A stretch of 64,000 bases of DNA from an uncultured Microthrixaceae bacterium (GTDB lineage: Bacteria > Actinomycetota > Acidimicrobiia > Acidimicrobiales > VFJN01): NCBI GenBank assembly GCA_963795165.1, contig CAWCGT010000001.1, positions 1,538,048-1,602,047 of the forward strand, read 5' to 3'. Within the stretch, counting starts at the first letter, position 1. Each line of letters begins with the position of its first letter. This document shows, in pieces, positions 7,586-64,000 of this stretch. Made by a program: the position numbers and the translations under genes. The notes beneath the pieces were generated by a model. That model did no database searches. It saw only the letters and a list, made by a program, of their open reading frames with translations, and was not told where the DNA came from.

Positions 7586-8889
7586 ATGACGTGGAGCTTC
7601 GAGACCGAGCCTGAGTTCCAGCAGAAGCTGGACTGGGCGGATGCCTTCGTGCGGGAGGAGGTGGAGCCGCTCGACCTGCTGTGGCCCGACCTCGTGTTCA
7701 CGCCGCCCGATGCCCGCCTGAAGGCGGTGCTCGACCCGCTCAAGGACCAGGTGCGCGCCCAGGGCCTGTGGGCCACCCACCTCGGGCCCGAGCTCGGCGG
7801 CGAGGGCTACGGCCAGCTCAAGCTGAGCCTGCTCAACGAGATCCTCGGGCGCTCGCTCGTGGGCCCCGGTGATCTTCGGCTGCCAGGCGCCCGACACCGG
7901 CAACGCCGAGATCATCGCCCACTACGGCACGCCCGAGCAGAAGGAGCGCTACCTCCAGCCGCTGCTGCAGGGCGAGCTGTTCTCCTGCTACTCGATGACC
8001 GAGCCCCACGGCGGGTCCGACCCCACGCTGTTCACCACCCGGGCCACCAAGGACGGCGACGAGTGGGTGATCCAGGGCTGGAAGTACTTCTCCTCCAACG
8101 CCAAGACGGCCGCCTTCCTCATCGTCATGGCCGTCACCGACCCCGAGGTGAGCGCCTACCAGGGCATGTCGATGTTCCTCGTCCCGACCGACACGCCGGG
8201 CATCAAGATCGAGCGCCACATCGGCCTCGGTGGCGAGCCTCTCGGAGAGGGCTCGCACGCGCTCATCCACTACGACGACGTGCACGTGCCGGCCGACGCC
8301 CTGCTCGGCGGCGAGGGCCAGGCCTTCGCCATCGCGCAGACCCGCCTCGGCGGCGGCCGCATCCACCACGCCATGCGCACCATCGGCATGGCCCAGAAGG
8401 CCATCGACGCCATGTGCGAGCGGGCCCTCAGCCGCAAGGTGCAGGGCGGCATCCTGGCCGACAAGCAGTTCGTGCAGGGCTACATCGCCGACTCCTACGC
8501 CCAGCTGGCGCAGTTCCGGCTGTTCGTGCTCTACACGGCGTGGACGATCGACAAGCACAACGACTACAAGCAAGGTCCGCAAGGACATCGCGGCGGTGAA
8601 GGTGCTGATGCCGGGCGTGCTGCACGACATCGCCTGGCGGGCCATCCAGATCCACGGCGCGCTCGGCGTGAGCAACGAGATGCCCTTCCCCGGGATGCTC
8701 CTCGGCTCCAGCATCATGGGCCTGGCCGACGGCCCCACCGAGGTCCACAAGGTCACCGTCGCCCGCCAGGTGCTTCGTGAGCACAAGGCCACCGACGACC
8801 TCTGGCCCACCACGCACCTTCCCAAGCGCCTGGCCGCCGCACGCGAGAAGTACGCCGAGCACCTGGAGCACGAGGTGGGCAACCTGTGA
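7586..8889 (+). pseudogene. acyl-CoA dehydrogenase, frame broken twice (+1 at ~7859 and ~8571)
   Basis: The protein continues across three track ORFs: 5954..8599 (MTWSFETEPEF...LNEILGRSL), 7869..8780 (WAPVIFGCQAPDTGNAEII...IDKHNDYK), 8230..8889 (KVRKDIAAVKVLMP...EHEVGNL). No other defects. The pseudogene status may be a sequence artefact. Confidence 0.8.
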
Positions 8890-9902
8890 GCCTCGACACT
8901 GACCGCCTGGCCGCCTGGCTCGACGAGCAGGACGTCCCTGGCACCGGACGAGCCGCTGGAGGCCACGCTTCGTCTCCGGTGGCACCCAGAACGAGATCTA
9001 CGAGATCCGCCGTGGCGACCTGCACGGCGCGCTGCGCATCCCGCCGGCCGCTGCGCCCGAGAGCCGCGACGAGGGCATCCTGCGCGAGTGGCGGATCATC
9101 GAGGCGCTCGACGGCACCGACGTGCCCCACACGTCGGCCATCGCGGCCTGCACCGACGTCGACGTGCTGGGCCGGGCCTTCTACGTCATGGGGTTCGTCG
9201 ACGGCTGGTCGCCGATGAACGTCGACGACTGGCCCGCCCCCTTCGACACCGACATGGCCGCCCGGCAGGGGCTGGCCTACGAGCTGGTCGACGGCATCGC
9301 CCTGCTGTCCAAGGTGGACTGGAAGGCCAAGGGCCTCCACGACCTCGGGCGTCCCGACGGGTTCCACGAGCGTCAGGTCGACCGCTGGACGGCCTTCCTC
9401 GAGCGCATCAAGGGCCGGGAGCTGCCGGGGTTCGACGAGGCGTCAGCCTGGCTGCGAACCCACTCGCCGCATCGACTACGTGCCGGGGCTGATGCACGGC
9501 GACTACCAGTTCGCCAACGTCATGTACCGCCACGGCGGGCCGGCTCGGCTGGCCGCCATCGTCGACTGGGAGATGGGCACCGTCGGCGATCCCAAGCTCG
9601 ACCTCGGGTGGGTGGTGCAGTCCTGGCCGACCGACACGGCCGAGACCGATCGAGCCCTCTCCTACGTCGACATGAGCGGCATGCCGACGCGCGACCAGGT
9701 GCTGTCCCGCTATGCCGAGGTGTCGGGCCGGCAGGTCGACGACATCGACTACTACGTGATCCTCGCCAAGTGGAAGCTGGCCGTGGTGCTCGAGCAGGGG
9801 TACCAGCGGCGAGGCGACGACGAGAAGCTCAACGCCTTCGGGCCGGTGGTGCTCAACCTGATGCGGGAGGCGGCGGAGGTCGCCGCCACCACCGACTACT
9901 GA
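8886..9902 (+). pseudogene. phosphotransferase (APH/choline-kinase-like) family protein, frame broken three times (~8949, ~8977, ~9470)
   Basis: GTG 8886 overlaps the ACAD stop (GTGA). The sequence runs MSLDTDRLAAWLDEQDVPGTG / EPLEATLRL / GGTQNEIYEIRRGD...WLRTHSP / IDYVPGLMHGDYQFANVM...IVDWEMG across three phases (track ORFs 8886, 9122, 9480). Kinase catalytic HGDxxxxN and DWE motifs are present. Confidence 0.75.
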
Positions 9903-9931
9903 TCGAGGTCCGGGCCTCCACCGAACCAGCC

Positions 9932-11036
9932 TCACGGTGAGATCCGGGCCCGTCCAGGGTTGGCCGGCCAGCCGTCGAGGCCCTCCGGTCGCAGGGCCCG
10001 GTAGGCCGACACAACCGGGGCCAGCTCGTCGGGCGTGGCCCCGTGCATGATCACGCCGTCCACGCCCAGGTCCAGCTGGCGGAGAACCCGCGCCGCGCAG
10101 TGCTCGGCCGAGCCGCGCGCGGACGGCTCGAGCCAGTCTTCTGGCAGCAGCGTGGCGATGTGCTCGAGCTGGGTGCGGTCGGCGACGCCGTCGATGGCGC
10201 CGGCGATCGACCCGACCACGGGGTCGGCACGGAAGCGCTCGAGCACAGCGGGATCCCACCCGTTCGTGCTGACCAGGAGGTCGCCGTAGCCCTGTAGGTA
10301 GGTCGCCAGCCGGCCCACCGTCTTCTTCAGGACCAGGGCGGGCTCGATGGTGTCGGGGACGGTGGCGTAGCAGGACCAGATCCGAACCGACGCCGGGTCT
10401 CGGCCCGCCTCCTCGGCCGCCGTCCGTACGATGCGAACGGCCCGCTCGACCGTCTCGTCCGTGAAGAACGTGTGGAGCACCACCATGTCGAAGGCCCGGC
10501 CGGCCAGGGCGAGGCTCTGGGGCCCGAAGGCCACCAGACCGACGGGGATGTCCTCGTCGAACGAGGCGTCCAGGTGCAGCACCGGGAACCGACCGGCCGG
10601 ACCGTCGTGGCCGAAGATGACCTCACCCCGCCACAGCCGGCGCAGCAGGCCCACGAAGTCCTCCATCTGGGCGGTGGTGATCTTGGGGATCCCGAAGGCC
10701 CCGAAGATGGCGTCGATGCCCCGCCCCAGACCGAGGGTGAACCGCCCCCCGCTCAGGCGGTGCATCGTGGTCCCGAACGCCGCTGTGATGAGCGGGTGGC
10801 GGGTGTTCTGGTTGGTCGCCGCCGTGGCGATCCCCAACCGGGCGGTGACGAGCCGCTGCCGCCCCGCACAGCGTGGCCGCCTCCTTGATGTTGTACCGCT
10901 CCGAGATGAACGTCGAGCCGAAGCCCAAGGTCTCCCCGGCGGCCACCTCCTCCATCAGCGGCGCCGGCGAAGGCGGGGCGCCCGCCAACGCGTAGAAGCC
11001 GAGCTCGTTCATCGGCGGCAGCGGGGTGGCGCTCAC
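9932..11036 (-). pseudogene. LLM-class (luciferase-like) F420/flavin-dependent oxidoreductase, one +1 break (~10850)
   Basis: The N-terminal part is in track ORF 10623..11036(-) (MSATPLPPMNELGFYALAG...IKEAATLCGAAAA). The rest is in 9932..10837(-) (GIATAATNQNTRHPLITAA...). Confidence 0.75.
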
Positions 11037-11128
11037 GGGCAGCTCCAGAGGAGGCGGACGATGGGCGACAGCATCGCGCTCCGTCGCAGTAGGTTCCGCT
11101 CCGGTCGCCCGTCCGGAGGAGTCGCAGC

Positions 11129-12115: not shown

Positions 12116-12140
12116 GGCCGCCCTGAGCCCGGTGTGGTGG

Positions 12141-12214
12141 TGGAGGTGATGGGACTCGAACCCACGGCCTCTTCGATGCGACCGAAGCGCTCTAGCCAAC
12201 TGAGCTACACCCCC
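12141..12214 (-). tRNA. tRNA-Ala (anticodon CGC)
   Basis: 74-nt cloverleaf read on the minus strand: GGGGGTG acceptor with G3:U70, D arm GCTC/GAGC, anticodon loop GTCGCAT, T arm GTGGG TTCGAGT CCCAT, discriminator A. CCA is encoded at 12138-12140. Confidence 0.9.
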
Positions 12215-18136: not shown

Positions 18137-18782
18137 ATGCGCCGGAAGCCGCTGCACCGCCGTCCCGGCATGGCCCTGACCCTGCGCCGTCGGCCTCGCC
18201 TCCGGGCCGCCGTGGCCAGCGCGGTGGCCGTGCTCACGGGCGCGGCCGTGGCCATCACCGCCAACCAGGCCGAGCAGACCCGGGCGGCGTGGGGTCGACG
18301 AACCGCCGTGGTGGTCGCCGTCGCGCGACGTCGAGGCCGGGGAGGTGCTCGAGCCCGGCGACGTTCGACTGGTCGACCATCCCGGCCCGCTCGTGCCGGC
18401 CGGGGCCCTCACGGGGCTCCCCGACGGCGTCCGCCTGGCCCACCCGGTGTTCGCCGGGGAGGTGGTGCACGAAGGGCGGCTGGCCCCGGCCGCCACGTCG
18501 GCGGCGGCGGCCCGGCTGCCTGCCGGCACGCGTGCGGTGGCCGTCCCGAGGGAGCCTGCCACCACCCCACCACTCGAGGTGGGCGACCGCGTCGACGTCC
18601 TGGTGGCACTGGGTCCGGAGGCGGCCGGGACCGGCGCCCCCGGCTTCGCCCTGACCACCAACGCGATGGTGGTCGACGTGGCCGAGGCGGCCGTCACCGT
18701 GGCCGTGCCCCGCGATGCCGCGCCGCGGCTGGCGGTCGCCCTCACCCAGGGCGCCGTCCTGCTGGCGCTCACCGTGGGCTGA
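18137..18782 (+). pseudogene. SAF-domain protein, one +1 break (~18320-18329)
   Basis: The N-terminal TM/anchor is in track ORF 18137..18847 (MRRKPLHRRPGMALTL...AWGRRTAVVVAV). The SAF-like remainder is in 18345..18782 (RDVEAGEVLEPGDVRLVDHP...LTQGAVLLALTVG). Confidence 0.6.
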
Positions 18783-19616: not shown

Positions 19617-20973
19617 CTAGGCGCCCGAGAGGGCGATGTCGGGGATCACGAGCGTGACGCCCCCGGTGCCGTCGGGCAGCCACTCGAGGTCGGCTCCCAC
19701 CGCGGAGATGTCGAGCAGCAGCCGCTGGAGGGTGGAGGCGATGGTGGCCTCCCGGATGGGCTCAGCCAGCTCGCCTCCCTTGACCATGAGACCCTCCACC
19801 CCGACGGAGAAGTCGCCGGACACCGGGTTCACCCCGGAGTGCAGCCCGGCCATCGACGTGACGAACAGGCCGTGCTCCACGGCGCCGAGCACCTCCTCGT
19901 GGGTGCCCGCCCCTGGCGCAACGGCCAGCGCAGCGGCTGACACGCCTGGGGTGGAGGCCACCCCGCGCTCAGCCGACCCGGTGGAGGCGGTGCCCGACCT
20001 CCGCCCGGTGTACGTGTTGTGCAGGAAGCCCTGCAGGACGCCGTCGACCACCAGCTCGTTGCGGCGACGGGCCAGCCCCTCCCCGTCGTGGGACTCGGCG
20101 CCCAGGGAACGGGGGTCGGTGGGGTCGTCGATGAAGGTGAGCAGCTCGGATGCCACCTGCTCCCCCACCCGACCGGCGAAGGGCGACCGCCCCTTCAGGA
20201 CGGCCTCGCCGCTGAGCATGCCGCCCACCAGCCCGAGGATGGTGGCAGTCATGCGAGGCTCGAGGACCAGGGTGAGGCGCTGGGTGGACGGCTGGGAGGA
20301 GCCCAGCAGCCGGGTGGAGCGCAGCACGGCGTCGTCGGCCGCCTCGTCGATGGAGAGCTCGACTGATCTCGCGACCCACCGACAGCCCCCCGGCGATCTG
20401 GGTCTCCTCGCCCTGCCGAGCCAGGGCCTGGACCATGAGGTGGCAGGTGCCCGCCCGACCCCACGCACGGATCCCCGTGCTGGTCGCCACCGCGCCCTCC
20501 CCGAGCGAGTCGCTGAAGAGCGCCATGCGAACCCCGGTGACCCGGGGGTCGCGCCCGGTGGTGGCCTTCTCCAGCTCGAGGGCCATGGCCACCTTGTCGG
20601 CGGTGGGCACGTCGGCCAGGTGCTCGGGCCAGAGGTCGAGGTCGGCCGCCACCACGCCATCGGGCTCGGCCAGGCCGTTGAACTCGTCCGGCTCGCCGAA
20701 CGCGGCGTTGTCGCGTGCCTCGGCGAGCGCTTCGAGGACCACGGCTTCGTCGAGGGTGCCTGCATAGGCGAAGCCCTGCCGGTGGTCGACGATGACCCGC
20801 ACCCCGATGCCGGCCGAGGTGGCCTGGGTGAGGCTCTCCACCTCCCCGGCGTAGGCCCGCACCGAGGTGCTGGTGCCCCGGGCGACGAAGGCCTCGACCT
20901 GCTCGCCGGGCTCAGCCCGGTCGGCGATGCGGGCGGCGACGTCGAGCAGCTCGGGGTGGTCCGGGCTGCTCAC
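19617..20973 (-). pseudogene. pmbA: PmbA/TldE-family metalloprotease modulator, one +1 break (~20364)
   Basis: GTG 20973 overlaps the tldD stop (GTGA). The N-terminal part is in track ORF 19969..21621(-) (VSSPDHPELLDVAARIADRA...GLSVGREI). The C-terminal part is in 19617..20765(-) (VELSIDEAADDAV...VIPDIALSGA). Confidence 0.8.
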
Positions 20974-22360
20974 GCCGTGCCGCCGACGGTGAGCGCCGGC
21001 ACCCGGAGGGTGGGAACCCCGTCGCCGACCGGCACGCCCTGCCCGTCCTTGCCGCACATCCCCGGGCTCCCCATGGCGAAGTCGTTGCCCACGGCGTCGA
21101 TGCTGGCCAGCACCGCGGGACCGTTGCCGATGAGGTTGCCCTCCCTGATGGGCTCGGTGATGCGACCTCCCTCGATGAGGTAGGCCTCCGTCATGCCGAA
21201 GACGAAGTCCCCGGTGGCCGTGTTCACCTGACCGCCTCCGAGGTGGGCCACGTAGACCCCGTCGGGGGTGCCGGCCACGATGTCGTCGGGCTCGTCGGGC
21301 CCGCCGAGCACGTAGGTGTTGGTCATGCGGACCATCGGGAGGTGCTTGTAGCTCTGGCGGCGGCCGTTGCCCGACCGGGGCCGGCCCTCTGTGCGGGAGC
21401 GGAGCAGGTCGTACATGTAGTCGGTGAGGATGCCGTCCTCGATGAGGACGTTGCGCTGGGCCAGCGAGCCCTCGTCGTCGACGGCGAAGGCGCCCCACTC
21501 CTCGGCCATCGTGCCGTCGTCGACCAGGGTGATGCGCGGGTCGGCCACCCGCTCGCCCACCCGACCGGCGAACACCGAGGCGCCTTTGGCGACCAGATCG
21601 GCTTCCAGGCCGTGCCCGCAAGCCTCATGGAAGAGCACACCGCCGCCGCCGGGGCCGATGACCACGGGCAGGGTGCCGGACGGGGCCGGACGGGCGGCCA
21701 GCTTGAGCAGGGCCCGCTCCGCCGCCTCCCGGGCGATGTCGTCGACGTCGTAGGTGTCGAACAGCTCGAACCCCACGGTGCGGCCGAGCGACTGGTAGCC
21801 CGTCTGCATGCCCGTGTCGCCGGTGGCCACCGCCATCACCGTGAAGAGCGTTCGCACCTGGTCGTCCTCCGTGAGGAGGCCGTCGCTGTTGGCCACCAGG
21901 ATGCGTCGACGGCTATCGCCGTAGCGAGCCGTCACCTGGCTGATGGCCCCACCAGCCGCCGCGGGCACTGGCATCGGCTCGACGCAGCAGCTCCACCTTG
22001 CGGCCCTTGGCCACGTCCTCAGGGAGCACGGCGATCTCGTTGGGTCGGGGTGCCTCCTGGCGGGTGAGGGCCACCTCCACCACCCCGCCGTCCCCGGAGC
22101 GGGCGGCGGCCCCGGCCGCCTCAGCTGCCTCGGCCAAGCCGGCCTCGGACAGGTCGGCGGTGTGGGCGAACCCGGTCGTCTCCCCCACGATCACCCGGAT
22201 CCCGGCCCCGCGGATCGCGGCCGGAGCTGAGGTTCTCCACCTTCCCGTCGTCGAAGATGGCGTTGGCGCTGGCCTTGTCCTCCACGAAGATCTCCGCCAG
22301 CTCGCCTCCTCGGCGCAGGGCGGTGCTCAGGGTGCGTTGGACGAGGTCGTGATCAAGCAC
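20970..22360 (-). pseudogene. tldD: TldD-family metalloprotease, two +1 breaks (~22213, ~21957)
   Basis: The sequence runs through track ORFs 22121..22360(-) (MLDHDLVQRTLSTALRRGGELAEIFVEDK...), 21913..22194(-) (AGIRVIVGETTGFAHTADL...) and 20970..21974(-) (AGGAISQVTARYGD...HEACGHGLE...). Confidence 0.8.
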
Positions 22361-22407
22361 TGGGCTCCTCTTGCTCCGGTGGTCAGGGTGCGGCGTATCG
22401 TACCCAG

Positions 22408-22797: not shown

Positions 22798-23645
22798 TCA
22801 GAGCCGGGCCAGGAACCCCGACAGCGCCGACCACCAGGCGTCAGGGCTCTCGAACTGCGGGGAGTGCCCCGCCTCCGGGAGCACCACCAGCTCGGCCCCG
22901 GCGATCGCCTCCGCCATCCGCCGGGATGGCTTGAGGAACGGGGTGTCCTCCTCCCCCACCAGCACCAGCGCCGGCATGGCGATCTGGGGAAGGTCGGGGA
23001 GGCGATCGACCGCAGCGGCGTCGGTGATGGCGCGGCAGCATGGCGGCGTACATGACCGGCGACGAGGCGAGCATCTTGCGAGCTCCGAACTCGCGGTAGC
23101 CCTCGCGGGAGTCGAGGAGGCGCTGGTGGGCGCCGCTGGCGAGGGGTTGGTCCTTCCCGAGAGCGTCCTGGGCAGCCATGACGGCGGCCATGCCCTCGGT
23201 TCGGGCCAGCGCCGCCCCCATCTCCACCAGACCGCCGTCGGCTCGCACGCCGCGGTGGGACGTGTCCATGAGGCACCAGCGCGTCGAAGCGCTCGGGCGC
23301 CCGCAGCACCGCCGTCTGCACGACCATGCCGCCCATCGAGTGGCCGAGCACGGCGCAGCGCTCCCATCCCAGCGCGTCGACCAGGCCCAGGAGGTCCGCT
23401 GAGAACACGTCGAACCCGTAGGCCTCCTCCGCATCGGGCTGGGCGCTGCACCCGTGACCCCGCTGGTCGGGCGCCACCGCGTGCCAGCCGAGCTCGGCCA
23501 GCCGATCGAGCCAGTCGGTGAAGTCCTCCTTGGCCCCGGTGAAGCCGTGGACCAGGAGGAGCGGCCGACCGCCGGGACCGGCCTCGGCCAGGCAGAGCTC
23601 GACCGGGCCGCCCGACCCGACCACCTCGAGGTGGCGCTCGATCAC
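22798..23645 (-). pseudogene. alpha/beta hydrolase, two +1 breaks (~23274, ~23036)
   Basis: Track ORFs 22575..23645(-) (MIERHLEVVGSGGPVEL...GHSMGGMVVQ...APERFDALV), 22841..23434(-) (LMDTSHRGV...SSPVMYAAML) and 22798..23682(-) (RAITDAAAVDRLPDL...EAGHSPQFESPDAWW...). Nucleophile elbow GHSMGG. Confidence 0.75.
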
Positions 23646-35111: not shown

Positions 35112-35853
35112 CCGCCGCCCGTCGCCATCGTCACGGGCGGAGGCTCCGGCCTGGGCGCCGCCATCTCGCAGCGGCTGGCCGACGACGGCCACACGGTGGT
35201 GGTCGCCGACATCGACGTCGAGGCCGCCGGCAAGGTGGCCGCCGACGTCGGCGGACACCCGTTCGCGGTCGACGTGCGCCGTCGCCGACGAGGTGCAGGC
35301 ACTCGCCGATCACTCGGCCGAGCTCGGTCCGGTCCGTGTCCTGGTGCTGTCGGCGGCCGTGGAGGTGCGGGCGGGCATCCTCGACACCTCCGACGACGAC
35401 TGGCGCTCGGTGCTCGACACCAACCTCAAGGGCCCCTTCCTCTGCATGCGGGCCGTGGTGCCCAAGATGGTCGACGCCGGTGGCGGTTCCATCGTGGCCC
35501 TCGGCTCCACGCTGGGCGCCATCGTCGCCCCCGGGTACCCCGCCTACTGCACCAGCAAGTTCGCCCTCACCAACCTCTGCAAGCAGGTGGCCATCGAGCA
35601 CGCCCCGGACGGCGTGCGCGTCAACGTGGTGGCGCCCTCGGCCTGCGACACCGGACTGTTCGTACGGATGGCCGAGTCCACCGGCGACCCAGAGGCCATC
35701 AGACGCATGGTCACGTCCAACGTGCCGATGGGCCGCCTCGGCACGGCTCGGGAGGTTTGCGACGCCGTTGCCTTCTTCGCGTCCGATGCGTCCTCGTACA
35801 CCAGCGGTACCGTGCTCCCCCTCGATGGCGGCCTGGCCGCTCGGAGGATGTGA
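35108..35853 (+). pseudogene. SDR-family oxidoreductase, two +1 breaks (~35120, ~35280)
   Basis: ATG 35108 overlaps the previous stop (ATGA). [32 protein letters not shown]... is in the phase of track ORF 35196. [15 protein letters not shown]...YCTSKFAL...[12 protein letters not shown] is in track ORF 35293..35853. Confidence 0.75.
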
Positions 35854-36924
35854 TGCTGGACGACGGCGCTCGGGTGCTCGACGCCGACGGGCACGTGATC
35901 GAGCCCGCCCACCTGTTCCACCGGTGGAGCGAGGGCCGGCTGCCCATGGACCTGCCCGCGACCACCCCGATGGTCCCCTGCGGCGACTTCGACCTGCTGG
36001 CCGACCAGCTCGAGCACGGCTTCGACGCCCCTTCCTACCTCCGGGCGTTGGACGCACAGGGCATCGACGCTGCGGTGCTCTACCCGTCGATCGGTCTGTT
36101 CGTGCCGTTCCTACCCGAGCTCGACACCGCCGAGAGCGTGGCCGCCTGCCGGGCCTACGACGATTGGATCGCCGAGTACTGCAGCGACACCGACGGCCGC
36201 CTGTTCGGCGTGGGCATCCTCCCGCTGGCTGACCCCGCGGAGGCGGAGAAGGAGGTCAGCCGGGCGGCCGAGATGGGGCTGGTGGCCATGATGGCCCGCC
36301 CCAACCACCTCTACGGGCGCAACCTCGGCGATCCTGCCTACGACGGCGTCTACGACGCCCTGGCCGGCCACGGCTTGGTGCTCTCCGTGCACGAGGGGCT
36401 GGGCCTGCGCGGCCAGCCCACCATCGGCTCCGATCGCTTCGATCGCTTCGGGCCGCGCCACGCCCTCAGCCACCCGATGGAGCAGATGGCGGCCATGGCC
36501 AGCCTCGTGCTCGACGGCGCCTTCGAGCGGCACCCGGCGCTGCGCACTGCGTTCTTGGAGTCGGGCACAGGGTGGCTGCCCTACTGGCTGCACCGCCTCG
36601 ACGAGCACCGCGAGTGGCTCGAGGGCACCGAGTGCGCAGACCTGTCCCTCAGCGCCAGCGAGTACTTCGCACGGCAGTGCGCCATCAGCACCGAAGCCGA
36701 CGACGACCTGGCCGCCGACGTGGTGGGTGCCGTCGGGGCCGACCACGTGCTGTGGGCCAGCGACTTCCCCCATCCCGACGCGGTGTTCCCCGGCTCGGCC
36801 GCGCGAGTTCGCTCGTCGGTGTGCCGAGCACGACCTATCCCACGAGGATCGCAACGCCGTCCTGTGGTCGACACCGATCGACCTCTACCGGCTCGGCGAC
36901 CGGATCCAAGGAGGCGCCCAATGA
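35853..36924 (+). pseudogene. amidohydrolase-2 (ACMSD-like) family protein, one +1 break (~36800)
   Basis: ATG 35853 overlaps the SDR stop. [18 protein letters not shown]...[16 protein letters not shown] is in the phase of track ORF 35196. The C-terminus [31 protein letters not shown]... is in track ORF 36727..36924. Confidence 0.75.
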
Positions 36925-38114
36925 CCGAGACCTTCGACGCCATGGGCCAGTTCACCGACACGGTGGCTGGTGACGTCCGCGACCCCTATCCGGAGCTGGC
37001 GCGCAAGCGGCGCGAGTCGCCCGTCGAGCTCGACATGCAGATGGGGTTCGACCTCGAGGAGCGGCTCACCGCCACCGTGTACCGCCACGACGACGTGGCC
37101 ACCGTGCTGCGCGACAACGCCACCTTCTCGTCCACCGCCATCCGCGACCTCATGGGCGTGGTGATGGGACCCTTCGTGCTGGTGGGCATGGACGGCGCCG
37201 AGCACAAGCGCCATCGCCACCTGGTGTCGCAGGCCTTCCGGTCCAAGGCTCTGGCCCACTGGGAAGACGACCTCATCACCGACGTGATCGATCAGCTCAT
37301 CGACGGGTTCGCTGGCGACGGCCGGGCCGAGCTGGTCCGCCAGCTCACCTTCCACTTCCCCGTGCAGGTGATCGCGGAGGTGCTGGGCCTCCCCCACGAG
37401 GACCACGAGCGGTTCCACGAGTACGCCGTGGCCATCATCAACGTGGCCGCCAACCCCGAAGCCGGCATCAAGGCGTCCGAGGCCCTCCGCACCTACCTCT
37501 CCGAGCACGTCGAGGCCCGGCGGCGCGATCCCGGCACCGATGTGATCAGCGACCTCGTCACCAGCGAGTTCGACGGCGAGGTGCTCGACGACGAGGAGAT
37601 CTACTCCTTCCTCCGGCTGCTCCTGCCCGCCGGCGCCGAGACCACCTATCGGGCGGCCGGGAACTTCCTCTTCGGCCTCCTCACCAACCCCGACCAGATG
37701 GACGCCCTGCGAGCCGATCGCTCGCTGATGGTGCCAGCGGTGGAGGAGGCCATCCGGTGGGAGTCGCCGCTGCTGATCACCACCCGTCGGTGCATGGCCG
37801 ACACCGAAGTCGCCGGCGTCGCCATCCCGGAGGGGGCCAACGTGATCGCCAACCTGGGCTCGGCCAACCACGACGAGGCCCACTGGGACGATGCCGAGTC
37901 CTTCGACATCCACCGCGAGCCGAAGCCCCAGATCGCCTTCGGGGCTGGTCCGCACATGTGCCTCGGGATGCACCTGGCCCGGCTGGAGCTGCGGGTGGCC
38001 GTCAACCGCCTTCTTGACCGGCTCCCCGACCTCCGCATCGATCCCGACGGGGACGACCCCCACATCCATGGTGAGCGCTTTCGATCGCCCACCGCGCTGC
38101 CCGTGCTCTTCTGA
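36921..38114 (+). CDS. cytochrome P450
   Basis: ATG 36921 overlaps the amidohydrolase stop (ATGA); 397 aa, intact. I-helix AGAETT, ExxR (EEAIRW), heme loop [14 protein letters not shown]. Confidence 0.9.
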
Positions 38115-38299
38115 TGATCGAGATCGACCGCAACACCTGCATCGGGTCGGGCAACTGCGGCTTCTGGGCCCCGCACACCTTCGACATCGGCGACGACAAC
38201 GTGGCCTTCGTCCTGGACCCGCCCCACGACGATCCCGGCGTGATCGCCAAGGCCGCCCAGGGCTGTCCCACCCGCAGCATCGCCATTACCGGAGGCTGA
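38114..38299 (+). CDS. ferredoxin (3Fe-4S/4Fe-4S single-cluster type)
   Basis: 61 aa. Start overlaps the P450 stop. Cluster motif CIGSGNC...CP. Confidence 0.8.
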   Translation: MIEIDRNTCIGSGNCGFWAPHTFDIGDDNVAFVLDPPHDDPGVIAKAAQGCPTRSIAITGG

Positions 38300-39175: not shown

Positions 39176-39238
39176 CGGTGGCCGCAGGGCGTCGGGCGCC
39201 CGAGTACGGTCGATCCAAGACTGGGACGAAAGGCGATC

Positions 39239-45397: not shown

Positions 45398-46032
45398 AAG
45401 CCGGCACGGTCGCCGGGAGGTTCTCTCCCACGGATGTTGAGGAGCGTGGTGCTCAGCGCCACGAAGGTGTCGATGAAGCGCTCGTCGGAGAGCCCGAGCG
45501 GCGGTGCGCCGAAGCTCCAGGTCGAGCGTCGCAGGTTGATGAGGCCGCCGATGAGCAGCACTGCGAGGGCTTCGTTGTCGATGCGTTGGTCGGTGATCGT
45601 GGCGGTCCATCGTTCGATGAGCGACGCCGCGACTCGGTAGCCGCGATCGGACACGCCGGTCCGCATCCGATCGCGTAGTTCGGGGAGTCGGTCTCCTTCT
45701 CGTTCGATGACGTGGGTGATGGTGCGTTCACGGTCGAGTTCCGCGAGCAGCCATCGCATGACTGCCTCGATCTCGGCTGCGGGCTCCGTGAGTGGTGAAG
45801 CGGAGAGGTCGATCTCGACCTCGGCGATCGAGGCGAGGTGTCGCTCCAATCCAGCCTCGAGCACTGCCAGCTTCGAATCGAAGTACTTGTACAGCGCTCC
45901 ACTGCGCGGCGCGAGCCCCGCACCGGCCTCGATGTCGCCGACACTCACCCCAGCGAAGCCGCGCTCGGCGACCAGTTCGAGCGTGGCATCGATGAGCCGA
46001 TCTCGCGTCTGATGCAACCCCGACTTGACCAT
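45385..46032 (-). CDS. TetR/AcrR-family transcriptional regulator
   Basis: ATG 46032 (MVKSGLHQTRDRLIDATLELVAERGFAGVSVGDIEAGAG...) within track ORF 45385..46443(-); 215 aa. GC is visibly lower than in the neighbouring genes. Confidence 0.85.
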   Translation of the reverse strand: MVKSGLHQTRDRLIDATLELVAERGFAGVSVGDIEAGAGLAPRSGALYKYFDSKLAVLEAGLERHLASIAEVEIDLSASPLTEPAAEIEAVMRWLLAELDRERTITHVIEREGDRLPELRDRMRTGVSDRGYRVAASLIERWTATITDQRIDNEALAVLLIGGLINLRRSTWSFGAPPLGLSDERFIDTFVALSTTLLNIRGREPPGDRAGLPSA

Positions 46033-46076
46033 CACTACGATTGTAGTGATACTCGCATCACTACGATCGTAGTGAT
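46031..46076. promoter_or_regulatory. two tandem 20-bp palindromic operators in the TetR / DDN divergent region
   Basis: ATCACTACGATTGTAGTGAT (46031-46050, 18/20 palindromic) and ATCACTACGATCGTAGTGAT (46057-46076, perfect palindrome), separated by 6 bp. The first overlaps the TetR start codon. Confidence 0.6.
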
Positions 46077-46093
46077 GACCGAGGGAGGTGGGG

Positions 46094-46522
46094 ATGGCCA
46101 TGAGCCGTGATGCGGCTACCGATGCGCGAAAGCGACGTCGGGTTCTGGCACTGCAACGATGGATTCTGAACCCGCCGATGAAGCTGCTCGTCTGGCTGGG
46201 TGTCGTGCCCGGCCACGTCGTCATCGAAACGCTCGGCTGCCGGACCGGCAAACGACGGCGCACTGTCGTCGGTGCGCACCGCGACGGCGACACGATCTGG
46301 GTGGTCGCCGAGCAGGGACGACGTGCCGGATGGGTTCGCAATCTCGAGGCTGAACCCGAGGTCCGAGTCCGTCGGCGCGCCCAGTGGCGTGCGGCGAGCG
46401 CGTCGATCATCGACGACGACGATGCCAGTGCACGGATGGGCACATGGCATCGACCGGGACATGCTCGACTCGTCGAGCGATTCGGGACTCAGCTCACAAC
46501 GATCCGGCTCGACGTTCGATAG
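46094..46522 (+). CDS. deazaflavin (F420)-dependent nitroreductase family protein (DDN-like)
   Basis: ATG 46094 with GGGAGG 5 nt upstream (the track starts at GTG 46088). Family pattern ...LGCRTGKRRRTVVG...VVAEQGRRAGWVRNLEAEPEVRV. Confidence 0.7.
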   Translation: MAMSRDAATDARKRRRVLALQRWILNPPMKLLVWLGVVPGHVVIETLGCRTGKRRRTVVGAHRDGDTIWVVAEQGRRAGWVRNLEAEPEVRVRRRAQWRAASASIIDDDDASARMGTWHRPGHARLVERFGTQLTTIRLDVR

Positions 46523-46599
46523 TCGCTGCGCTCAGGCCCCTTGCGCGCGACGCTCGTTCCGCCGGAACGGACCAGGCACGTGAGTCACTTGGACGAGCC

Positions 46600-46814
46600 A
46601 TGGCGTTTCACCGGACGGTACGACACCCGGCAATCGTCGCTCCGATCGAGGTGATCGACACGCGCACCAAGCGGCAGCTCGTCTATCCGTGGCTGGACGG
46701 AGTCGTGCGTAACCATGCCACTGTCGCGGGGTCAGACCGATCCGGACTGAAACGGTTCCATGGACTACCCCAGCCTGAGCTTTCGGGCCCTGCAGGTAGA
46801 GTCACCTGTCCTTT
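46600..46814 (+). pseudogene. possible N-terminal fragment of a phosphotransferase/kinase, truncated at tRNA-Arg
   Basis: MAFHRTVRHPAIVAPIEVIDTRTKRQLVYPWLDGVV...KRFHGLPQPE resembles the first ~70 aa of APH-type kinases. The ORF runs into the tRNA gene and ends at 46824 with no catalytic region. Confidence 0.3.
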
Positions 46815-46887
46815 GCCCTCGTAGCTCAGGGGATAGAGCATCGGTTTCCTAAACCGTGCGTCGCAGGTTCGAATCCTGCCGAGGGCG
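46815..46887 (+). tRNA. tRNA-Arg (anticodon CCT)
   Basis: 73-nt cloverleaf: acceptor GCCCTCG/CGAGGGC, D arm GCTC-AGGGGATA-GAGC, anticodon loop TTCCTAA, T arm GCAGG-TTCGAAT-CCTGC, discriminator G. CCA is not encoded. Confidence 0.9.
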
Positions 46888-46919
46888 CAACCCTCGCAGC
46901 CCCCCCCGGCCGATGCGAG

Positions 46920-47330
46920 TCAGGCCGATCCGAGCGGGTGCTCCTCGAAGTACTCCACGATGCTCGGCATCATCGCCTCGAACCCGCCCGGTGCTCCGAT
47001 GTTCAGAGCGCCGGCCGGTTGGTCGTGCGAGTTCTTGAAGGTGTGGGTCACCCCGCCCGGCACCAGCACAAAGGAGCCCCGCGGGGCCTCGATCCACTCC
47101 TCGTCGACCAGGAAGTCCATGGTCCCCTCGATGACGTAGAAGACGTCGTCCTCGTCGTGCGAGTGGGCGTCGGGCCCGACGGTGTGCGGGTCGAGCCACC
47201 ACTCCGACACGTTGTAGAGGTTGGCTGACTCAGCCCCATCGGCCTTGAACGTGGCGCGCATCCCGCCCATGTCGTAGGCCCGACCTCCCCCAGGAGCCAG
47301 GACCACCGCCCGCCGAGCTGCTCGGTGCAT
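46920..47330 (-). CDS. cupin-domain protein
   Basis: ATG 47330 (MHRAARRAVVLAPGGG...) within track ORF 46920..47396(-). Cupin motifs HSHDEDDVFYVIEG and VLVPGGVTHTF. Confidence 0.7.
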   Translation of the reverse strand: MHRAARRAVVLAPGGGRAYDMGGMRATFKADGAESANLYNVSEWWLDPHTVGPDAHSHDEDDVFYVIEGTMDFLVDEEWIEAPRGSFVLVPGGVTHTFKNSHDQPAGALNIGAPGGFEAMMPSIVEYFEEHPLGSA

Positions 47331-57090: not shown

Positions 57091-58623
57091 TCAGACCGAC
57101 GTCGGGCGGTCGGACCAGTACCGATCGCGCAGCAGACGGGTGTAGAGCTTGCCGGTGGGGTGCCGGGGAAGCTGGTCCTCGAAGTCGACCGACCGGGGCA
57201 CCTTGAACCCGGCCAGCCGGCGGCGGGCGAACAGCAGCAGGTCCTGCTCCAGCGCCGCCGTGGGCGCATGGCCCTCCACCAGCTCCACCGCCGCCTTCAC
57301 CTGCTCCCCCCACTCCTCGTCGGGGACGCCGAAGACGGCAACGTCGGCCACGGCCGGGTGCTCGATCAGCACTTGCTCGATCTCGGCCGGGTAGATGTTC
57401 ACACCACCGGAGATGATCAGGTTGGCCGCCCGGTCGGAGAGGAAGACGTAGCCGTCGTCGTCGACGTGCCCGATGTCGCCCATGGTGAACGTGCCCGGGG
57501 CCAGGTGGGCGGCGGCTGTCTTCTCGGCGGCCCGGTGGTACTCGAAGACCTCGTCGGTGGTGAGGTTGTGCGTGTAGAGGGTGCCCACCTCGCCGGGCGG
57601 GAGACGGTCGCCGTCGGCGTCGACGGCGAACACCTCGTAGGTGGCGATGGCCTTGCCGACGGTGCCCGGCTTGGTGAGCCAGGCCTCGGAGTCCACCAGG
57701 GTGAACACGCCGCCCTTCGGTGCTCCCCCAGTACTCCGTGAGGACCGGACCCCACCACTCGATCATCCGCTGCTTGGTGGTGGGCGCGATGGGGGCGGCG
57801 CCGTGGAGGACGGTGGCCAGCGACGACGGATCGAAGGTCGCGCGCTCCTCGTCGGGCAGGCGCAGGAGCCGCACGCACATGGTGGGCACCACGTGGCTGT
57901 TGCGGACCGATCGCTCCTCGATGAGGCGCAGGCAGTGCGACTCGTCCCAGCGAGGCATCAGCACCAGCTCGCTGCCGTTGGCGAGGTCGATGGCCGCGAA
58001 GCCGAGGGGGGCGGCGTGGTAGAGCGGTCCGGTCACGAGGTGGGGCCCGAGGCCGTCGAGGCCCAGCACCAGGCCGGCGGCCGCGCCGACGGCGAGCGTC
58101 CGGCCCAGCGAGGGCTGCCGGGTGCGCTTCACTCCCTTGGGCCGTCCCGTGGTGCCCGACGTGTAGAGCATCGTCCCGCCTCCGGGACCATCGAGCGTCG
58201 AAGGGCGAGTCGTCGGGGTGGGCGGCGAGCCGCCTCGAGCTCAGGCCCCGCCACCACCACCGCGACCGAGCGGCGGGCCAGGGCCGCCGCCTGACGGGCC
58301 ACCGCCTCGTGGTCCGGGTCGGTGAGCAGGAGAGCGGCGGCCGAGTCGTCCAGGATGTAGGCGACCTCCTCGGCGGTGAGGTGCCAGTTGACGGCGGTGA
58401 GCCAGGTGCCGGAGTGCTGGGCGGCGACCAGGAGCTCGATGAGCTCCACCCGGTTGCCGATCAGCACGGCGACGTGACCACCCGGCGCCACGCCGCCGTC
58501 GTCGAGCAGCCAGTGCCCGAGCCGGCGGGCCCGGTCGAGCAGCTCGCCGCGCGTCCGGCGCCGGGTGAGGTCGTCGACGGCGGGGGCGTCGGGATCGTCC
58601 GCGACCCGGTCGAGGAAGCTCAT
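57091..58623 (-). pseudogene. acyl-CoA synthetase / AMP-dependent ligase, three +1 breaks (~58230, ~58196, ~57716)
   Basis: Track ORFs 58129..58623(-) (MSFLDRVADDPDAPAV...AGPELEAA), a short third-phase stretch (LAAHPDDSPFDA), 56729..58171(-) (LDGPGGGTMLYTSGTTGRPKGV...YWGSTE) and 57091..57708(-) (GGVFTLVDSEAW...TGKLYTRLLR). Confidence 0.8.
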
Positions 58624-58688
58624 GGGTCGGTGATCCTGGCAGGGATCCGGCGGTCCCGCCTCCGCCCGGCGCGCCGTAGTGTGCGCAG

Positions 58689-59717
58689 ATGGCAGGAGGA
58701 GGACACGGGACCAAGGCGGTCGTCGCCGCGCTGCTCGCCAACGCCGGGATCGCCGTCGCCAAGTTCGTGGGCTTCGTGATCACCGGATCGGCGTCGATGC
58801 TGGCGGAGTCGATCCACTCCGTCGCCGACTCCGGCAACCAGGGCCTGCTGCTGCTCGGCGGGCGGCGAGCCCGGCGGGCGGCCAGCGAGGCCCATCCCTT
58901 CGGCTACGGCCGGGAGCGCTACTTCTGGGCCTTCGTGGTGGCCATGGTGCTCTTCAGCCTCGGCGGAGCCTTCGCCATCTTCGAGGGCATCGAGAAGATC
59001 CGCCACCCGCACGAGATCGAGTCGGCCGGGATCGCCATCGGCATCCTGGCGGTGGCCTGCCTCCTCGAGGCGCTCTCCTTCCGCACCGCCATCGTCGAGT
59101 CCAGGAAGGTGAAGGGCGACTCGAGCTGGTGGCAGTTCGTGCGCCGGTCGAAGAACCCCGAGCTGCCCGTCGTGCTGCTGGAGGACCTCGGTGCCATGTT
59201 GGGCCTCCTCATCGCCCTCGGTGCCGTGATCACCTCACTGGCCACGGACAACGCCGGTCTACGACGGCGTACGGCACGCTGTCGATCGGCGTGCTGCTCA
59301 CGCTGATCGCCATCGTCCTGGCGGTGGAGATGAAGAGCCTCCTCATCGGCGAGTCGGCCGACCGCAAGGTGCTGGAGACCATCCGCTCGGCGGTGGAGAT
59401 CGAGCCCGCCGTGGAGCGGCTGATCCACGTGCGCACCCAGCACCTCGGTCCCGAGGAGCTGCTTGATCGGGGCCAAGGTGAGCTTCCTCGGAAGCCTCTC
59501 GGTGACGGAGCTCGCGGAGGCTGTCAATCGGGTGGAGGCCAACGTGCGACGTGGAGTTCCCGCCGCCGGGATCATGTACATCGAACCCGACGTCATGGGC
59601 ACGGACCTGCCCGGCGACCCCTTCGTCCCCGACCTGCCCGACGACCACCCGGCCGCTGAGCCCCACCCGGAGCCGGCCCCCCGCCGCCGGCGGGTGCTGC
59701 GCGCCAACGCCGACTGA
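58689..59717 (+). pseudogene. cation diffusion facilitator (CDF) transporter, three +1 breaks (~59256, ~59271, ~59461)
   Basis: Track ORFs 58689..59306 (GSASMLAESIHSVADSGNQ...SLATDNA), a 5-codon stretch VYDGV, 58679..59659 (GTLSIGVLLTLIAIVLAVEM...HLGPEEL) and 59463..59717 (LIGAKVSFLGS...). Confidence 0.8.
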
Positions 59718-60545: not shown

Positions 60546-60574
60546 TATCTAGCACTTGCTAGATAGAGCAAGTG
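60546..60574. promoter_or_regulatory. two overlapping palindromes in an AT-rich patch upstream of the peroxiredoxin gene
   Basis: TATCTAGCA-CT-TGCTAGATA (60546-60565, perfect 9-bp arms) overlaps CACTTGCT-AGATAG-AGCAAGTG (60553-60574, perfect 8-bp arms). Local GC is far below the window average. The site lies between divergent genes 60507(-) and 60648(+). Confidence 0.4.
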
Positions 60575-60647
60575 GCATGGGTCACATCGCAAATCCCGAC
60601 CCCATCGACTAGGGTTTCGCCGACCGACGCACACGGAGGACGACGAC

Positions 60648-61280: not shown

Positions 61281-61292
61281 CCCTGGGATCCC

Positions 61293-64000
61293 TCACGCGG
61301 GGACGCCCACGGCCAGGGCGTACGCCTGCCGCCATCCGGTACGGCTGAGGCCGAGCTCCTCCAACCGGGCCTCGGCCTCGGTGTGGCGGGCCGCGGCGTC
61401 GGGACCTCCCGCGAGCGGCTGCCGCCGTGGCACCGGCCAACCGGACCAGGGCCTGGGACACCCGGTCCTCGGTGGCGTCGGCGGCTGCCGTCACCTGGTC
61501 GAGGGCGGCAAGCGCCGCGGCCACGTCGTCGCCCCGCGCCAGGGCCAGCCCTCGGGCGATCCCGGCCGTGATCTTGTCGAGGTAGGTGGCCCGCTCGGAG
61601 GCATCGACCTCGTCGGCCTCGCGAAGCGCGGTCGTCCACCTCACCGGCCGCCGCGTGGGCGAGAGCCAGCGCCGAGTGCAGGTTCGGGTCGATGGGGGCG
61701 TGGCGGGAGTCGAGCGCTGCCAGCACCTCGACGGCCCCGGCCACGTCACCGATCTGGAGGCGGTGCAGACCCAGCCCCGTGACGCGCTCGGTGTCGCCGA
61801 CGGTGAGGTCGTCGGCCGTAACCGCCTCCGGACGGGGACCAGCCGCGAGCAGCCGTTCGCTGCGCTCCACGTCGCCCACCTGCACGGTGGCACCGAGGCC
61901 CCCCATGACCGACACGAGGTACTCGCGATCGGACAGGGGCACGGTCGGAGTCGCGGCCGACGCTGGCCACCGTCTCCAGGCCCTCGTCGATGTGGCCCGC
62001 CAGGACGAGGGCGCGGCCCAGGACCGCGGCGCTCTGGGCCCGTCCGAAGTCGTCGTCGATCGACTCGAAGAGCTCGATGGGCCTCCCGGAGCCGCTCGAT
62101 GGCGCTGCGGGTGTGCCCGGTCCACAGCCGGACGGAGCCGGCCAGGACGTACATCATCCCGAGCGCCCACCGGTCGCCGCCCCGGCGCTCGCCGGCGAGG
62201 ACGGCCTCGGCCATCTCCCCGGCCTCCTCGGCGTGGCCCTGCTGGAACCGGGTCCAGGCCAGGAGGCCGTGCGCCCAGCGCAGGCCGCCGGGGTCGCCGA
62301 GCTCCTCGAAGGTGGCGGCGGCCCGACGCAGCAACCCCTCGGCCTCTTCGGCCCGCCCGGAGTAGAAGGCGCACCAGGCCAGGTTCTGGAGGGCCCACGC
62401 CACGCCCCGCCGATCGTCGAGCTGCCTCGAACCGGGCCCGGGCCTCCTCGAGCAGCTCGGTGGCGACGTCGTACTCGTGGCGGAGCAGGGCGCCGAAGCC
62501 GCGCAGCCGGAGCACCTCTGCCGCACCCGAAGGATCGTGGAGGGAATCGAGCACGTCGGCCGCCTCGGCCAGCACCGCCTCCGATGCCGGCCACGCCGAC
62601 TCCTTCTGCTCGATCTCCGCCAGCACCAGCAGCGCTCGGGCCAGGTCGGCTTGGCCCTCGCCCCCTGCTGCACGGCTCGCCGCCACCGCAGCCTCGGCGT
62701 CGACCCGAGCCGCCTTCAGGTCTCGAAGACCGGCCAGGGCCCGCGCCCGACCGGCGAGGAAGGCCCGGCGAAGCGGGCCTCGGTCCTCTCCGATCAGCGC
62801 CAGGCCCTCGCTGTAGAGCTGCTCCGCCACCATCGGGATCTCGGCCTGGTTGGCGCGTGCGGCGGCCCGCTCCAGCCAGTGCAGCGCCCGCTCGTCGAGG
62901 TCGGGTGGGAGGCCCTCCACCGCGCCGAGCTCGCGTAGCAGCTCGGCGGCGCGCACGTAGTGGTAGGTGATCCGATCCGTGACGTGGTCCCGATCGAGGT
63001 CTTCGTGCTCCTCCATCCAGGCGGCGATGCCGGCGTGCGAACGGGCCCGGTCCGACTTGGTGAGCGTGCCGTAGGCGACCTCACGGACGAGGTCGGAGCG
63101 GAACGTCCACTTCTCCGCCTCCCCTGCGCCGCTCAAGACGAGGAGGTCCTTCTCCTGCAGCGCCTCGAGGATCGGGCGCACGTCCTCCACCCCGAGGCGC
63201 TTGCTGGCCATCACCACGATGGCCATGAGCGGGCCGCGTCGGCCGAGCACCGCACAGCCCTCGAGGACGCGCCGCTCGTCGTCGGTGAGGCCATCGAGCC
63301 GGGCGGCTACCAGCCCGCGGAGGGTGTCGGGCAGCTCGACCCGACCGTGCAGCGGGACGACGGCACCCTCGCCGCCGACCATGCCAGCCTCCGCCAGGAG
63401 GGTGACGAGCTCCTCCATGAAGAACGGGTTGCCCCCGCTGCGGTCGAGGAGCGCTCGGGCCAGCTCGTCGCCCAGATCCTCGCCGGCCAGCACTGCGAGG
63501 AGCTCGGCGGCGGAGTCGGTGGTGAGGCTGTCCACCGTCAGCACCACCAGGTTGTGGCGACCGTGCGGCGGGTGCCACCGCTCGTCCATCGGCTGGCGGG
63601 CGGTGGCCAAGACGACGAACCGACGGCTGGACAGGCGGTCGAGGAGCGTGTCGACCAGCTCCAGGACCAGGTCGTCGGCCCAGTGGAGGTCGGACAGGAC
63701 CACCACCACCGGACGGTGCTGCGAGAAGCGGTCGGCGTAGGTGATGACCGCCTCGGTGGCCTCCTCGCGCGCCCGCGCCGGGTCGATCCCGCGCAGCTCG
63801 CTCTCGTAGCCCATGAGGAAGAGGAGGCCCTGGTGGACCCGCTCGATCTCTGCCTCCGACGCTCCCTCGCCCAACGCGGTGGCCACGGAGGAGCGGGCGA
63901 GGTCGATCGCCACGTCGGCGGGATCGCTCGACCGGATGCCGGCGCCGTGGCGAAGGGCGTCGGCCACGGGCCACCACACGTTGGCCTCGCCGTAGGGCAC
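61293..64000 (-). pseudogene. large STAND-type ATPase / TPR-repeat regulatory protein, 5-prime end outside window, five +1 breaks (~62426, ~62083, ~61957, ~61630, ~61407)
   Basis: Track ORF 61250..64000(-) is open to the window edge. It carries the Walker-B-like VVVLSDLHWADD and a helical/TPR region. The C-terminal 1.1 kb cycles through three phases (...ELLEEARARFE / QLDDRRGVAWALQNLAW... / PIELFESIDDDFGRAQS... / ATPTVPLSDREYL... / ALREADEVDASERATYL... / GPDAAARHTEAEARLEELGLSRTGWRQAYALAVGVPA*). The stop is at 61293-61295. Confidence 0.7.

Follow-up and report, generated by a model that had tools for sequence, protein, structure and literature searches.

Thirty-four +1 frame breaks in 14 conserved genes of a high-GC Acidimicrobiales-like sequence probably arise from consensus insertion errors

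Fourteen conserved genes in the window, the whole stretch of 64,000 nucleotides (64 kb) analysed here, are interrupted by 34 reading-frame breaks, which are probably technical insertion errors of the consensus, most likely of a long-read assembly, and not mutations of the organism. The breaks lie in five patches, and the net frame change along translation is +1 in 34 of 34. The source would be a fragment of a 72% GC Acidimicrobiales-like chromosome whose genes are intact in the organism, and single stray nucleotides would have been added to the consensus when the contig was produced. Tabulated by patch, the breaks number six in A, six in B, eight in C and 14 in D.

The same breaks come from three independent methods. 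A Viterbi frame path based on codon usage, independent of homology, finds essentially every listed site, Pfam domains become single stretches across the junctions once the frame segments are joined, and frameshift-aware protein-to-DNA alignments together with MAFFT DNA alignments against relatives pin the positions. By these methods the claims of the first-pass annotation, which had counted 34 breaks, all +1 and none -1, spread over 14 genes and confined to five patches, are borne out. Each break falls within about 17 nt of the site first listed, in most cases 1-10 nt away, and the sites that moved furthest are 8977 (now 8966-8) and 61957 (now 61940-5). No -1 event was verified by the codon-usage frame path and the alignments in the 64-kb window, and the protein-to-genome alignment that had been proposed as a check located the breaks without finding a mixture of +1 and -1. 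An extra nucleotide or a 2-nt loss had both been considered; at every break with a resolvable homologue, that is, one of at least 62% amino-acid identity or one to which the flanks align ungapped, the change is a 1-nt insertion with no residue lost. The flanks LNEILGRS before one break and SWAPVIFG after it, for example, are identical in the window and in the relative L164. Where the relatives' DNA allowed a check, each 1-nt insertion proved specific to the window.

Patch A affects three genes. The acyl-CoA dehydrogenase gene (7586..8889, plus strand) has two extra bases, at 7855-6 and 8571, and the Pfam acyl-CoA dehydrogenase N, M and C domains span its junctions. Its repaired product has 433 aa, shares 93% identity over 100% of the length with the intact 433-aa P0092/L164, and agrees in length with 120 listed homologues, almost all of which have 432-433 aa (range 432-443 aa); it exemplifies the family-typical, full-length products obtained after repair, as expected from the claim that deleting one base restores the protein. 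The APH-family phosphotransferase gene (8886..9902, plus strand) has three extra bases, at 8948-9, 8966-8 and 9472-3, which were placed by frameshift-aware alignment to the intact orthologues L164 (339 aa) and L165 (338 aa); the DNA alignment contains 1-nt insertions specific to the window and nothing else. The gene of an LLM-class (TIGR03857-like) F420-dependent oxidoreductase (9932..11094, minus strand, start codon uncertain) has one, at 10850-1, which appears as a single +1-nt event against P0212, P0213, P0215 and P0214 (72-73% identity), and the Bac_luciferase domain of Pfam spans the junction.

In patch B, a SAF/CpaB-like protein (18137..18782, plus strand) has one extra base at 18318-20, which is indicated by a Viterbi switch, by the SAF domain across the junction and by a +1 shift against the L005 homologue at just 42% identity. 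A PmbA/TldD-family metallopeptidase (19620..20975, minus strand) has one at 20361-2, where tblastn passes from frame -2 to frame -3 and where the frameshift-aware alignment to L008, L001 and L010 also places it; residues 10-451 of the 452 of the repaired protein align in one HSP. The TldD-family metallopeptidase (20970..22366, minus strand) has two, at 22212-4 and 21959-61, which four homologues (68-76% identity) place alike, and after repair the alignment covers residues 4-474 of 474. An alpha/beta hydrolase (22798..23645, minus strand), whose L004 homologue shares 47% identity, has two, at 23272-4 and, approximately, at about 23038, and after repair a single stretch covers Abhydrolase_1 positions 2-245 of 245.

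Patch C has two short-chain dehydrogenases (SDRs) and a hydrolase. The first dehydrogenase, C1 (34330..35111, plus strand), has five extra bases, at 34635-6, 34780-4, 34868-9, 34998-35002 and 35040-2; adh_short_C2 positions 1-235 of 236 run in one stretch across the five junctions, and five +1-nt events against P0006 (68% identity) agree with five window-specific 1-nt insertions against the DNA of L161-L163. The second, C2 (35106..35853, plus strand), has two, at 35116-20 and about 35274, which follow from the Viterbi path, and adh_short_C2 positions 6-235 of 236 form one stretch; the basis of the first event is the frame path and a conserved ATG, and distant-homologue alignments put the second at 35274-86. 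The ATGA start/stop overlap of C1 and C2 is kept in L161-L163. The Amidohydro_2-family hydrolase (35853..36924, plus strand) has one extra base at 36801-4, with Amidohydro_2 positions 2-289 of 289 in one stretch and one +1-nt event against P0241 and P0266 (62-64% identity); in the DNA alignment the insertion is specific to the window. The contigs L161-L163 were found with a chimeric patch C protein as query, and the matches were mostly tandem-SDR fusion proteins. These references contain many errors of their own, which makes the C2 part of the patch C DNA alignment noisy. The alignment gave two doubtful 'deletions' in the window, at 35242 and 35533, which neither the frame path nor Pfam supports and which were set aside as alignment noise.

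Patch D begins with a cytochrome P450 (55874..57073, plus strand) with three extra bases, at 56626-7, 56665-70 and 56743-6, the third of which restores the net frame; it was aligned to the intact orthologues L082 and L081 (74-75% identity). The AMP-binding acyl-CoA ligase (57091..58623, minus strand) has three, at 58230-1, 58198-9 and 57712-7, placed by alignment to the intact L084 orthologue of 516 aa (84% identity) and by the DNA alignment, and a further window-specific extra base is found at 58624, directly 5' of the ligase ATG. The cation diffusion facilitator (58689..59717, plus strand) has three, at 59254-7, 59271-2 and 59461-5, which are common to the alignments with four intact orthologues (L081, L084, L082 and L093). 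The large AAA_16/TPR regulator-like protein (61293..64000, minus strand, running off the window) has five, at 62422-3, 62073-7, 61940-5, 61632-4 and 61401-3, relative to the intact orthologues L081 (1204 aa) and L084 (1229 aa) at 72-74% identity; the DNA alignment agrees, and residues 1-900 of the repaired protein align in one HSP. The four genes of patch D and the two metallopeptidase genes of patch B match end to end the intact genes of the syntenic short-read contigs L081, L082, L084, L001 and L008.

The breaks are strongly clustered. The three largest gaps between them sum to 38.7 kb (P<1e-5, 100,000 simulations), and there are five gaps of less than 50 nt (P=0.001, simulation). At the densest point five breaks occur in one gene of 780 nt, and neighbouring stretches of 7-20 kb are untouched. 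Outside the patches nearly all same-strand frame switches lie within about 60 nt of the preceding ORF's stop codon and are therefore gene boundaries and not breaks. The exceptions were rejected on inspection: a candidate -1 at about 857 and candidate +1 events at about 11082 and at 39229 all fall in non-coding or start regions and are false positives. The long stretches between the patches thus are free of breaks, as had been described.

The interrupted genes still bear the marks of functional coding sequence. Codon bias (GC3 and the codon-usage path) persists in every shifted segment, and dN/dS is 0.11-0.34 in the broken genes against about 0.18-0.22 in their intact neighbours, a comparison that excludes the invalid row of AhpC against L081. 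No in-frame stops were found within the shifted segments, and no larger deletions. The unrelaxed dN/dS and the codon bias confirm the earlier remark that the genes have no other signs of decay. It is very unlikely that the breaks are genuine recent frameshifts that produced 14 young pseudogenes, for example by localised error-prone repair or a mutator episode. The extra bases are physically present in the sequence, and the genes hit are mostly accessory metabolic ones (ACAD, SDR, P450, ligase and hydrolases), whose loss could be tolerated. Nevertheless, up to five frameshifts in a 780-nt gene come without stops, larger deletions or a rise in dN/dS, the orthologues are intact, and the identical signature is confined to technically error-prone assemblies. 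Bacterial pseudogenes decay with an established bias to deletions (for example Mira, Ochman and Moran 2001), and the ratio of 34 insertions to no deletions contradicts such a bias.

The uniform +1 direction and the coding capacity kept downstream of every break would also be expected from programmed +1 recoding, in which ribosomal frameshifting or transcriptional slippage yields full-length proteins. The chance of this is practically negligible, since no slippery sequence, in-frame stop or A/T run is common to the sites, their contexts are heterogeneous, one to five sites occur per gene across unrelated families, and the sites are conserved in no orthologue, all orthologues being in frame. Natural pseudogenes and programmed frameshifting are both contradicted by the insertion-only spectrum, the constraint, the lack of a motif and the lack of conservation.

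The context of the inserted bases, whose tabulation had been suggested, gives neither a common motif nor the pattern of homopolymer-length errors. No 4-mer or 5-mer is enriched at the sites after multiple-test correction, and the positional composition around them is codon periodicity only, so that a shared-motif or methylation-site model is unsupported. A homopolymer candidate exists for 43% of the insertions, compared with 88% expected under homopolymer extension, a model that is thus rejected, and 0.51-0.59 under simulated random insertion. The A/T candidate fraction of 0.50 lies between the GC-matched value of 0.37 and the uniform one of 0.56. Sites compatible with a codon boundary make up 89% against 74% expected (p about 0.04), and the third codon position that directly precedes the extra base is A/T in 10 of 34 cases, where about 2 of 34 are expected. 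These two excesses hint weakly at mixed-strain pile-ups in which both alleles of a synonymous SNP were retained.

Relatives with long-read contigs have errors of the same kind. In locus L004, from a MAG of Microflora Danica (MFD; assembly method as given in PMC12313526), MoaA alone shows a 1-nt deletion and a 2-nt insertion besides six +1-nt insertions, and the genes adjoining it are clean. In L004, L012 and L161-L163 the density of stop-less frame switches is 0.4-2.5 per kb, with a +1:-1 ratio of 102:40 in a crude count in which a close pair of +1 events registers as one -1; in thirteen short-read or otherwise clean relatives it is 0-0.14 per kb. The insertions in L004, L010 and L161 likewise look non-homopolymeric. 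Nanopore-only contigs of related high-GC Acidimicrobiales thus have a like patchy, insertion-biased single-base noise at other positions, which short-read relatives lack, and the orthologues in short-read metagenome contigs are intact and in a single frame throughout. Soil assemblies made from Nanopore reads contain frameshift errors more often (PMC13087279), and a Nanopore assembly of a high-GC bacterium with a regional insertion cluster has been described (PMC11649196).

Two features fit less well with a consensus error. The sign of the breaks, 34:0, is purer in the window than in the long-read relatives, where about 72% of the events are +1, and the lack of homopolymer enrichment is atypical of the classic residual error of Nanopore or PacBio. 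Both bear on a deliberate or synthetic perturbation, in which random single bases would have been put into a correct sequence in chosen blocks: its sign could be solely +1, where real long-read relatives include some -1, and the homopolymer-candidate and A/T-candidate fractions, as well as the absence of a shared motif, resemble random insertion. Look-ups of three intact proteins of the window found no exact record, which is also in line with a perturbation. Such a perturbation is nonetheless unlikely. It is not needed, as Nanopore contigs of relatives have similar non-homopolymer insertions in similar patches; the breaks cluster hierarchically, in pairs spaced by 16-40 nt that lie within kb-scale patches, which is more like local consensus failure than a designed scheme; and the slight codon-boundary excess would not be expected from blind insertion. 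Extremely unlikely, in turn, are real localised bursts in a natural high-GC actinobacterial population, where error-prone synthesis during gap-filling or break repair, strongly biased to +1, might for example leave kb-scale insertion 'scars'.

Consensus insertion error is therefore preferred, and the initial judgement, which had favoured an insertion-biased consensus error or a perturbation over pseudogenisation, is supported by the intact orthologues, the exact repairs, the constraint, the absence of a motif and the long-read relatives. The patches would be places of poor consensus support in an otherwise clean sequence. They may have been caused, in a long-read assembly with light polishing, by coverage that was low or uneven or by pile-ups of reads from mixed strains, and the window itself would originate from such an assembly.

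As an artefact, the breaks have a value limited to a warning on annotation and quality. In DNA of 72% GC a wrong frame remains open over hundreds of codons, as in ORF 35196..38114 of 972 aa, and the expectation that ORF callers split or scramble these genes is supported. Gene callers would split the 14 genes or fuse chimeric ORFs, and protein databases would inherit the products. The homologue search did return fused products from related contigs, including a P450-SDR-amidohydrolase of 1184 aa. Metabolic reconstruction, pseudogene counts and estimates of completeness and quality of the genome would be distorted, and the 34 sites given here permit direct correction.

Among known systems, +1 frameshifting of the prfB/RF2 type resembles the window in its direction and in the conserved continuation in the downstream frame, but the window has no conserved shift site or stimulator, has many sites per gene and is unconserved in orthologues. 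Frameshift pseudogenes of reductive genome evolution are similar in that small indels interrupt recognisable genes, whereas the window has no relaxed constraint, stops or larger deletions and has insertions only, several per gene and in tight patches. Frameshift artefacts from long-read indels are the target of IDEEL-type tests and of frameshift correctors such as proovframe. The classic description of Nanopore metagenome artefacts stresses homopolymer indels, while the window has only insertions, which are not concentrated in homopolymers; like the window, these artefacts split conserved genes by single-base indels, leave the orthologues intact and form patches of errors where the consensus is weak.

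Two homology-free tests, a GC3 frame plot and a codon-usage Viterbi path (six coding frames and a non-coding state; training set, 18 long window ORFs), follow the coding frame along both strands. In both tests the frame steps +1 in the direction of translation at essentially every break proposed by the first-pass annotation. At these sites the frame left behind continues without a stop for tens to thousands of nucleotides; switches at ordinary gene boundaries coincide with a stop codon or lie close to one. When the segments are joined, 14 proteins result, in which Pfam domains span the junctions as single collinear stretches. After repair, the short-chain dehydrogenase (SDR) C1 matches adh_short_C2 over positions 1-235 of 236 across five junctions, the AMP-ligase D2 matches AMP-binding over 3-375 of 384 across three, the alpha/beta hydrolase B4 matches Abhydrolase_1 over 2-245 of 245 across two, and C3 matches Amidohydro_2 over 2-289 of 289 across one.

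In two of the patches, neighbouring genes overlap at their start and stop codons. The acyl-CoA dehydrogenase (ACAD) gene A1 and the APH-family gene A2 overlap in a GTGA motif (GTG start at 8886-8888, TGA stop at 8887-8889), and the ATG of the second SDR gene, C2, begins at 35106, just upstream of the C1 stop (35109-35111). The ATGA motif at the C1/C2 junction is conserved in the patch-C relatives L161-L163, and so helped to fix the true start of C2.

The type of change at each break was assigned by a purpose-written frameshift-aware protein-to-DNA dynamic programme, which distinguishes insertions of 1 or 2 nt from deletions of 1 or 2 nt. Whichever homologue of at least 62% identity is used, every event is a 1-nt insertion that has aligned sequence on either side and costs no residue, except for one call of a 2-nt deletion; this call falls in a weakly conserved stretch, and a second homologue gives an insertion there. 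MAFFT DNA alignments agree, the insertions being window-specific and of exactly one base each, and they contain no 1-nt indels in these genes among the short-read relatives. The repaired proteins match intact orthologues end to end in single HSPs, and the repaired ACAD has 433 aa, the 120 homologues listed having 432-443 aa, mostly 432-433. Inspection of the whole window leaves no -1 event standing, and together with the protein-to-DNA alignment of the breaks it leaves no mixture of signs. The claim of 34 breaks, all of them +1, is confirmed in full by frame plots, Pfam matches and both kinds of alignment, with a tally by patch of 6 + 6 + 8 + 14. A 35th window-specific extra base lies at 58624, directly 5' of the D2 ATG (window AAGCTCAT[G]GGTCGG; L084 and L082, two soil contigs, are without it). 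This base is non-coding, so the insertions are not confined to coding sequence, but natural intergenic variation could also account for it.

The probability that all 34 breaks share one direction by chance is about 2^-33. The breaks are also clustered: the three largest gaps between them total 38.7 kb (P<1e-5), the median gap is 307 nt (P<1e-5) and five gaps are shorter than 50 nt (P=0.001). Real insertion mutagenesis, clustered locally, is a very improbable source of this pattern.

The broken genes are not decaying. Their codon bias persists through all shifted segments in the GC3 plot and the Viterbi path, and their dN/dS against orthologues is 0.11-0.34, with most intact neighbours at about 0.18-0.22 and one short intact gene at 0.68 (one invalid row of the table was ignored). 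Neutral pseudogene decay in bacteria is deletion-biased, and as the origin of the breaks it does not fit 34 insertions against no deletion, nor five frameshifts in one 780-nt gene that has no other lesion. Programmed frameshifting was excluded on two grounds: the sites have no motif in common, and orthologues do not share them.

Expectations for the context of the extra bases came from simulation: insertions were placed in these genes and scored with the homologues used for the real ones. At 43% of the sites there is a candidate base that duplicates a neighbour; the expected share is 88% under pure homopolymer extension and 51-59% under random insertion. An A/T candidate is available at 50% of the sites, where G/C-only insertion predicts 21%, GC-matched insertion 37% and uniform insertion 56%. 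No 4-mer or 5-mer around the sites is enriched once multiple testing is corrected for. In 10 of 34 cases an A or T occupies the third codon position immediately preceding the extra base, compared with about 2 of 34 for third positions elsewhere, so that several of the stray bases are probably an A or T set before the original G/C. The insertions behave like near-random single bases, unlike homopolymer-length miscalls. An artificial insertion of random bases, a less likely origin, would be compatible with these random-like base and context statistics and with the perfect 34:0 sign. Whether consensus error or artificial insertion is the source, the breaks do not belong to the organism, and all 14 genes are to be taken as intact.

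The window has 72% GC throughout, and its best homologues come from Acidimicrobiales. Its GalU is 63-68% identical to proteins of Acidimicrobiales MAGs; its AhpC and acyl-CoA dehydrogenase reach 91% and 93% identity to proteins of soil metagenome contigs. Three intact proteins of the window, looked up by exact sequence, matched no database entry. Loci syntenic with 13-29 kb came from a genome scan. A metagenome scan returned three short-read soil contigs (L081, L082 and L084) whose synteny with the window extends over 55.8-64 kb, at 76-78% nucleotide identity, and which carry all four patch-D genes unbroken. Searches with proteins, and then look-ups of the contigs behind the hits, yielded L164 and L165, with intact ACAD and APH genes and DNA 86-88% identical to the window, the patch-C relatives L161-L163, and clean homologues of A3 and C3. 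Gene order around patch C varies: in blastn comparisons of window 34348-38121 with L162 (8803-12448) and L163 (329-4033), the P450 gene, at 36921-38111 of the window, is downstream of the SDR-SDR-amidohydrolase block in the window and L161 and upstream of it in L162 and L163. Coding signal is weaker and more fragmented at 41.6-47.4 kb, which may be an island adjoining a tRNA. About 0.9 kb at 45997-46931 has no coding signal, lies where the GC content of the window is lowest (66.9% over 46-48 kb) and ends at tRNA-Arg(CCT) (46815-46888). This tRNA gene and the second one, tRNA-Ala(CGC) on the minus strand (12138-12214), are both intact.

At 72% GC, ORFs in a wrong frame or with read-through run on for hundreds of codons, which makes mechanical ORF lists misleading around the breaks. 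One example, in line with the warning that ORF callers would scramble these genes, is the 972-aa ORF at 35196-38114, in which part of the amidohydrolase gene is fused to the P450 gene that follows. The called proteins P0001, P0002, P0005 and P0007 of the patch-C relatives are likewise fused or truncated artefacts, one an 1184-aa P450-SDR-amidohydrolase and others double SDRs of 482-619 aa, and such products are now present in protein databases.

The break pattern of the window appears again in related contigs from long-read metagenome assemblies. In the Microflora Danica MAG locus L004, searched with the intact MoaA and MoeA of the window, MoaA contains six insertions of 1 nt, a deletion of 1 nt and an insertion of 2 nt, MoeA contains one insertion, and the neighbouring genes are clean; L010 has one insertion, and six MEGAHIT-type MAG loci have no such indels. 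The insertion contexts in these relatives (GAA[G]GGC, GCG[C]ATG, TCC[A]GCG) look like those of the window. L161-L163 (ENA ERZ25039516, ERZ25039520 and ERZ25039586), which we infer to be long-read assemblies from their Flye-style contig names, contain many single-base indels, and their 1-nt insertions are mostly sequence-specific in a four-way DNA alignment. Frame switches without a stop, counted independently of homology, number 0.45 per kb in the window. Their rate in L004, L012 and L161-L163 is 0.4-2.5 per kb (1.7-2.5 in the last three; +1:-1 = 102:40), and the 13 relatives that are short-read or otherwise clean have 0-0.14 per kb. With the absence of decay, this shared pattern supports the first-pass reading that the breaks are a technical artefact biased towards insertions and not natural pseudogenes. 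They most likely go back to residual consensus error in a long-read assembly, probably of a Nanopore metagenome, in which errors would concentrate where consensus support was poor. The Microflora Danica MAGs are Nanopore-only Flye assemblies with one round of Medaka polishing (PMC12313526), frameshift rates are reported to be higher in Nanopore soil assemblies (PMC13087279), and a regional cluster of insertions has been described in the Nanopore assembly of a high-GC bacterium (PMC11649196).
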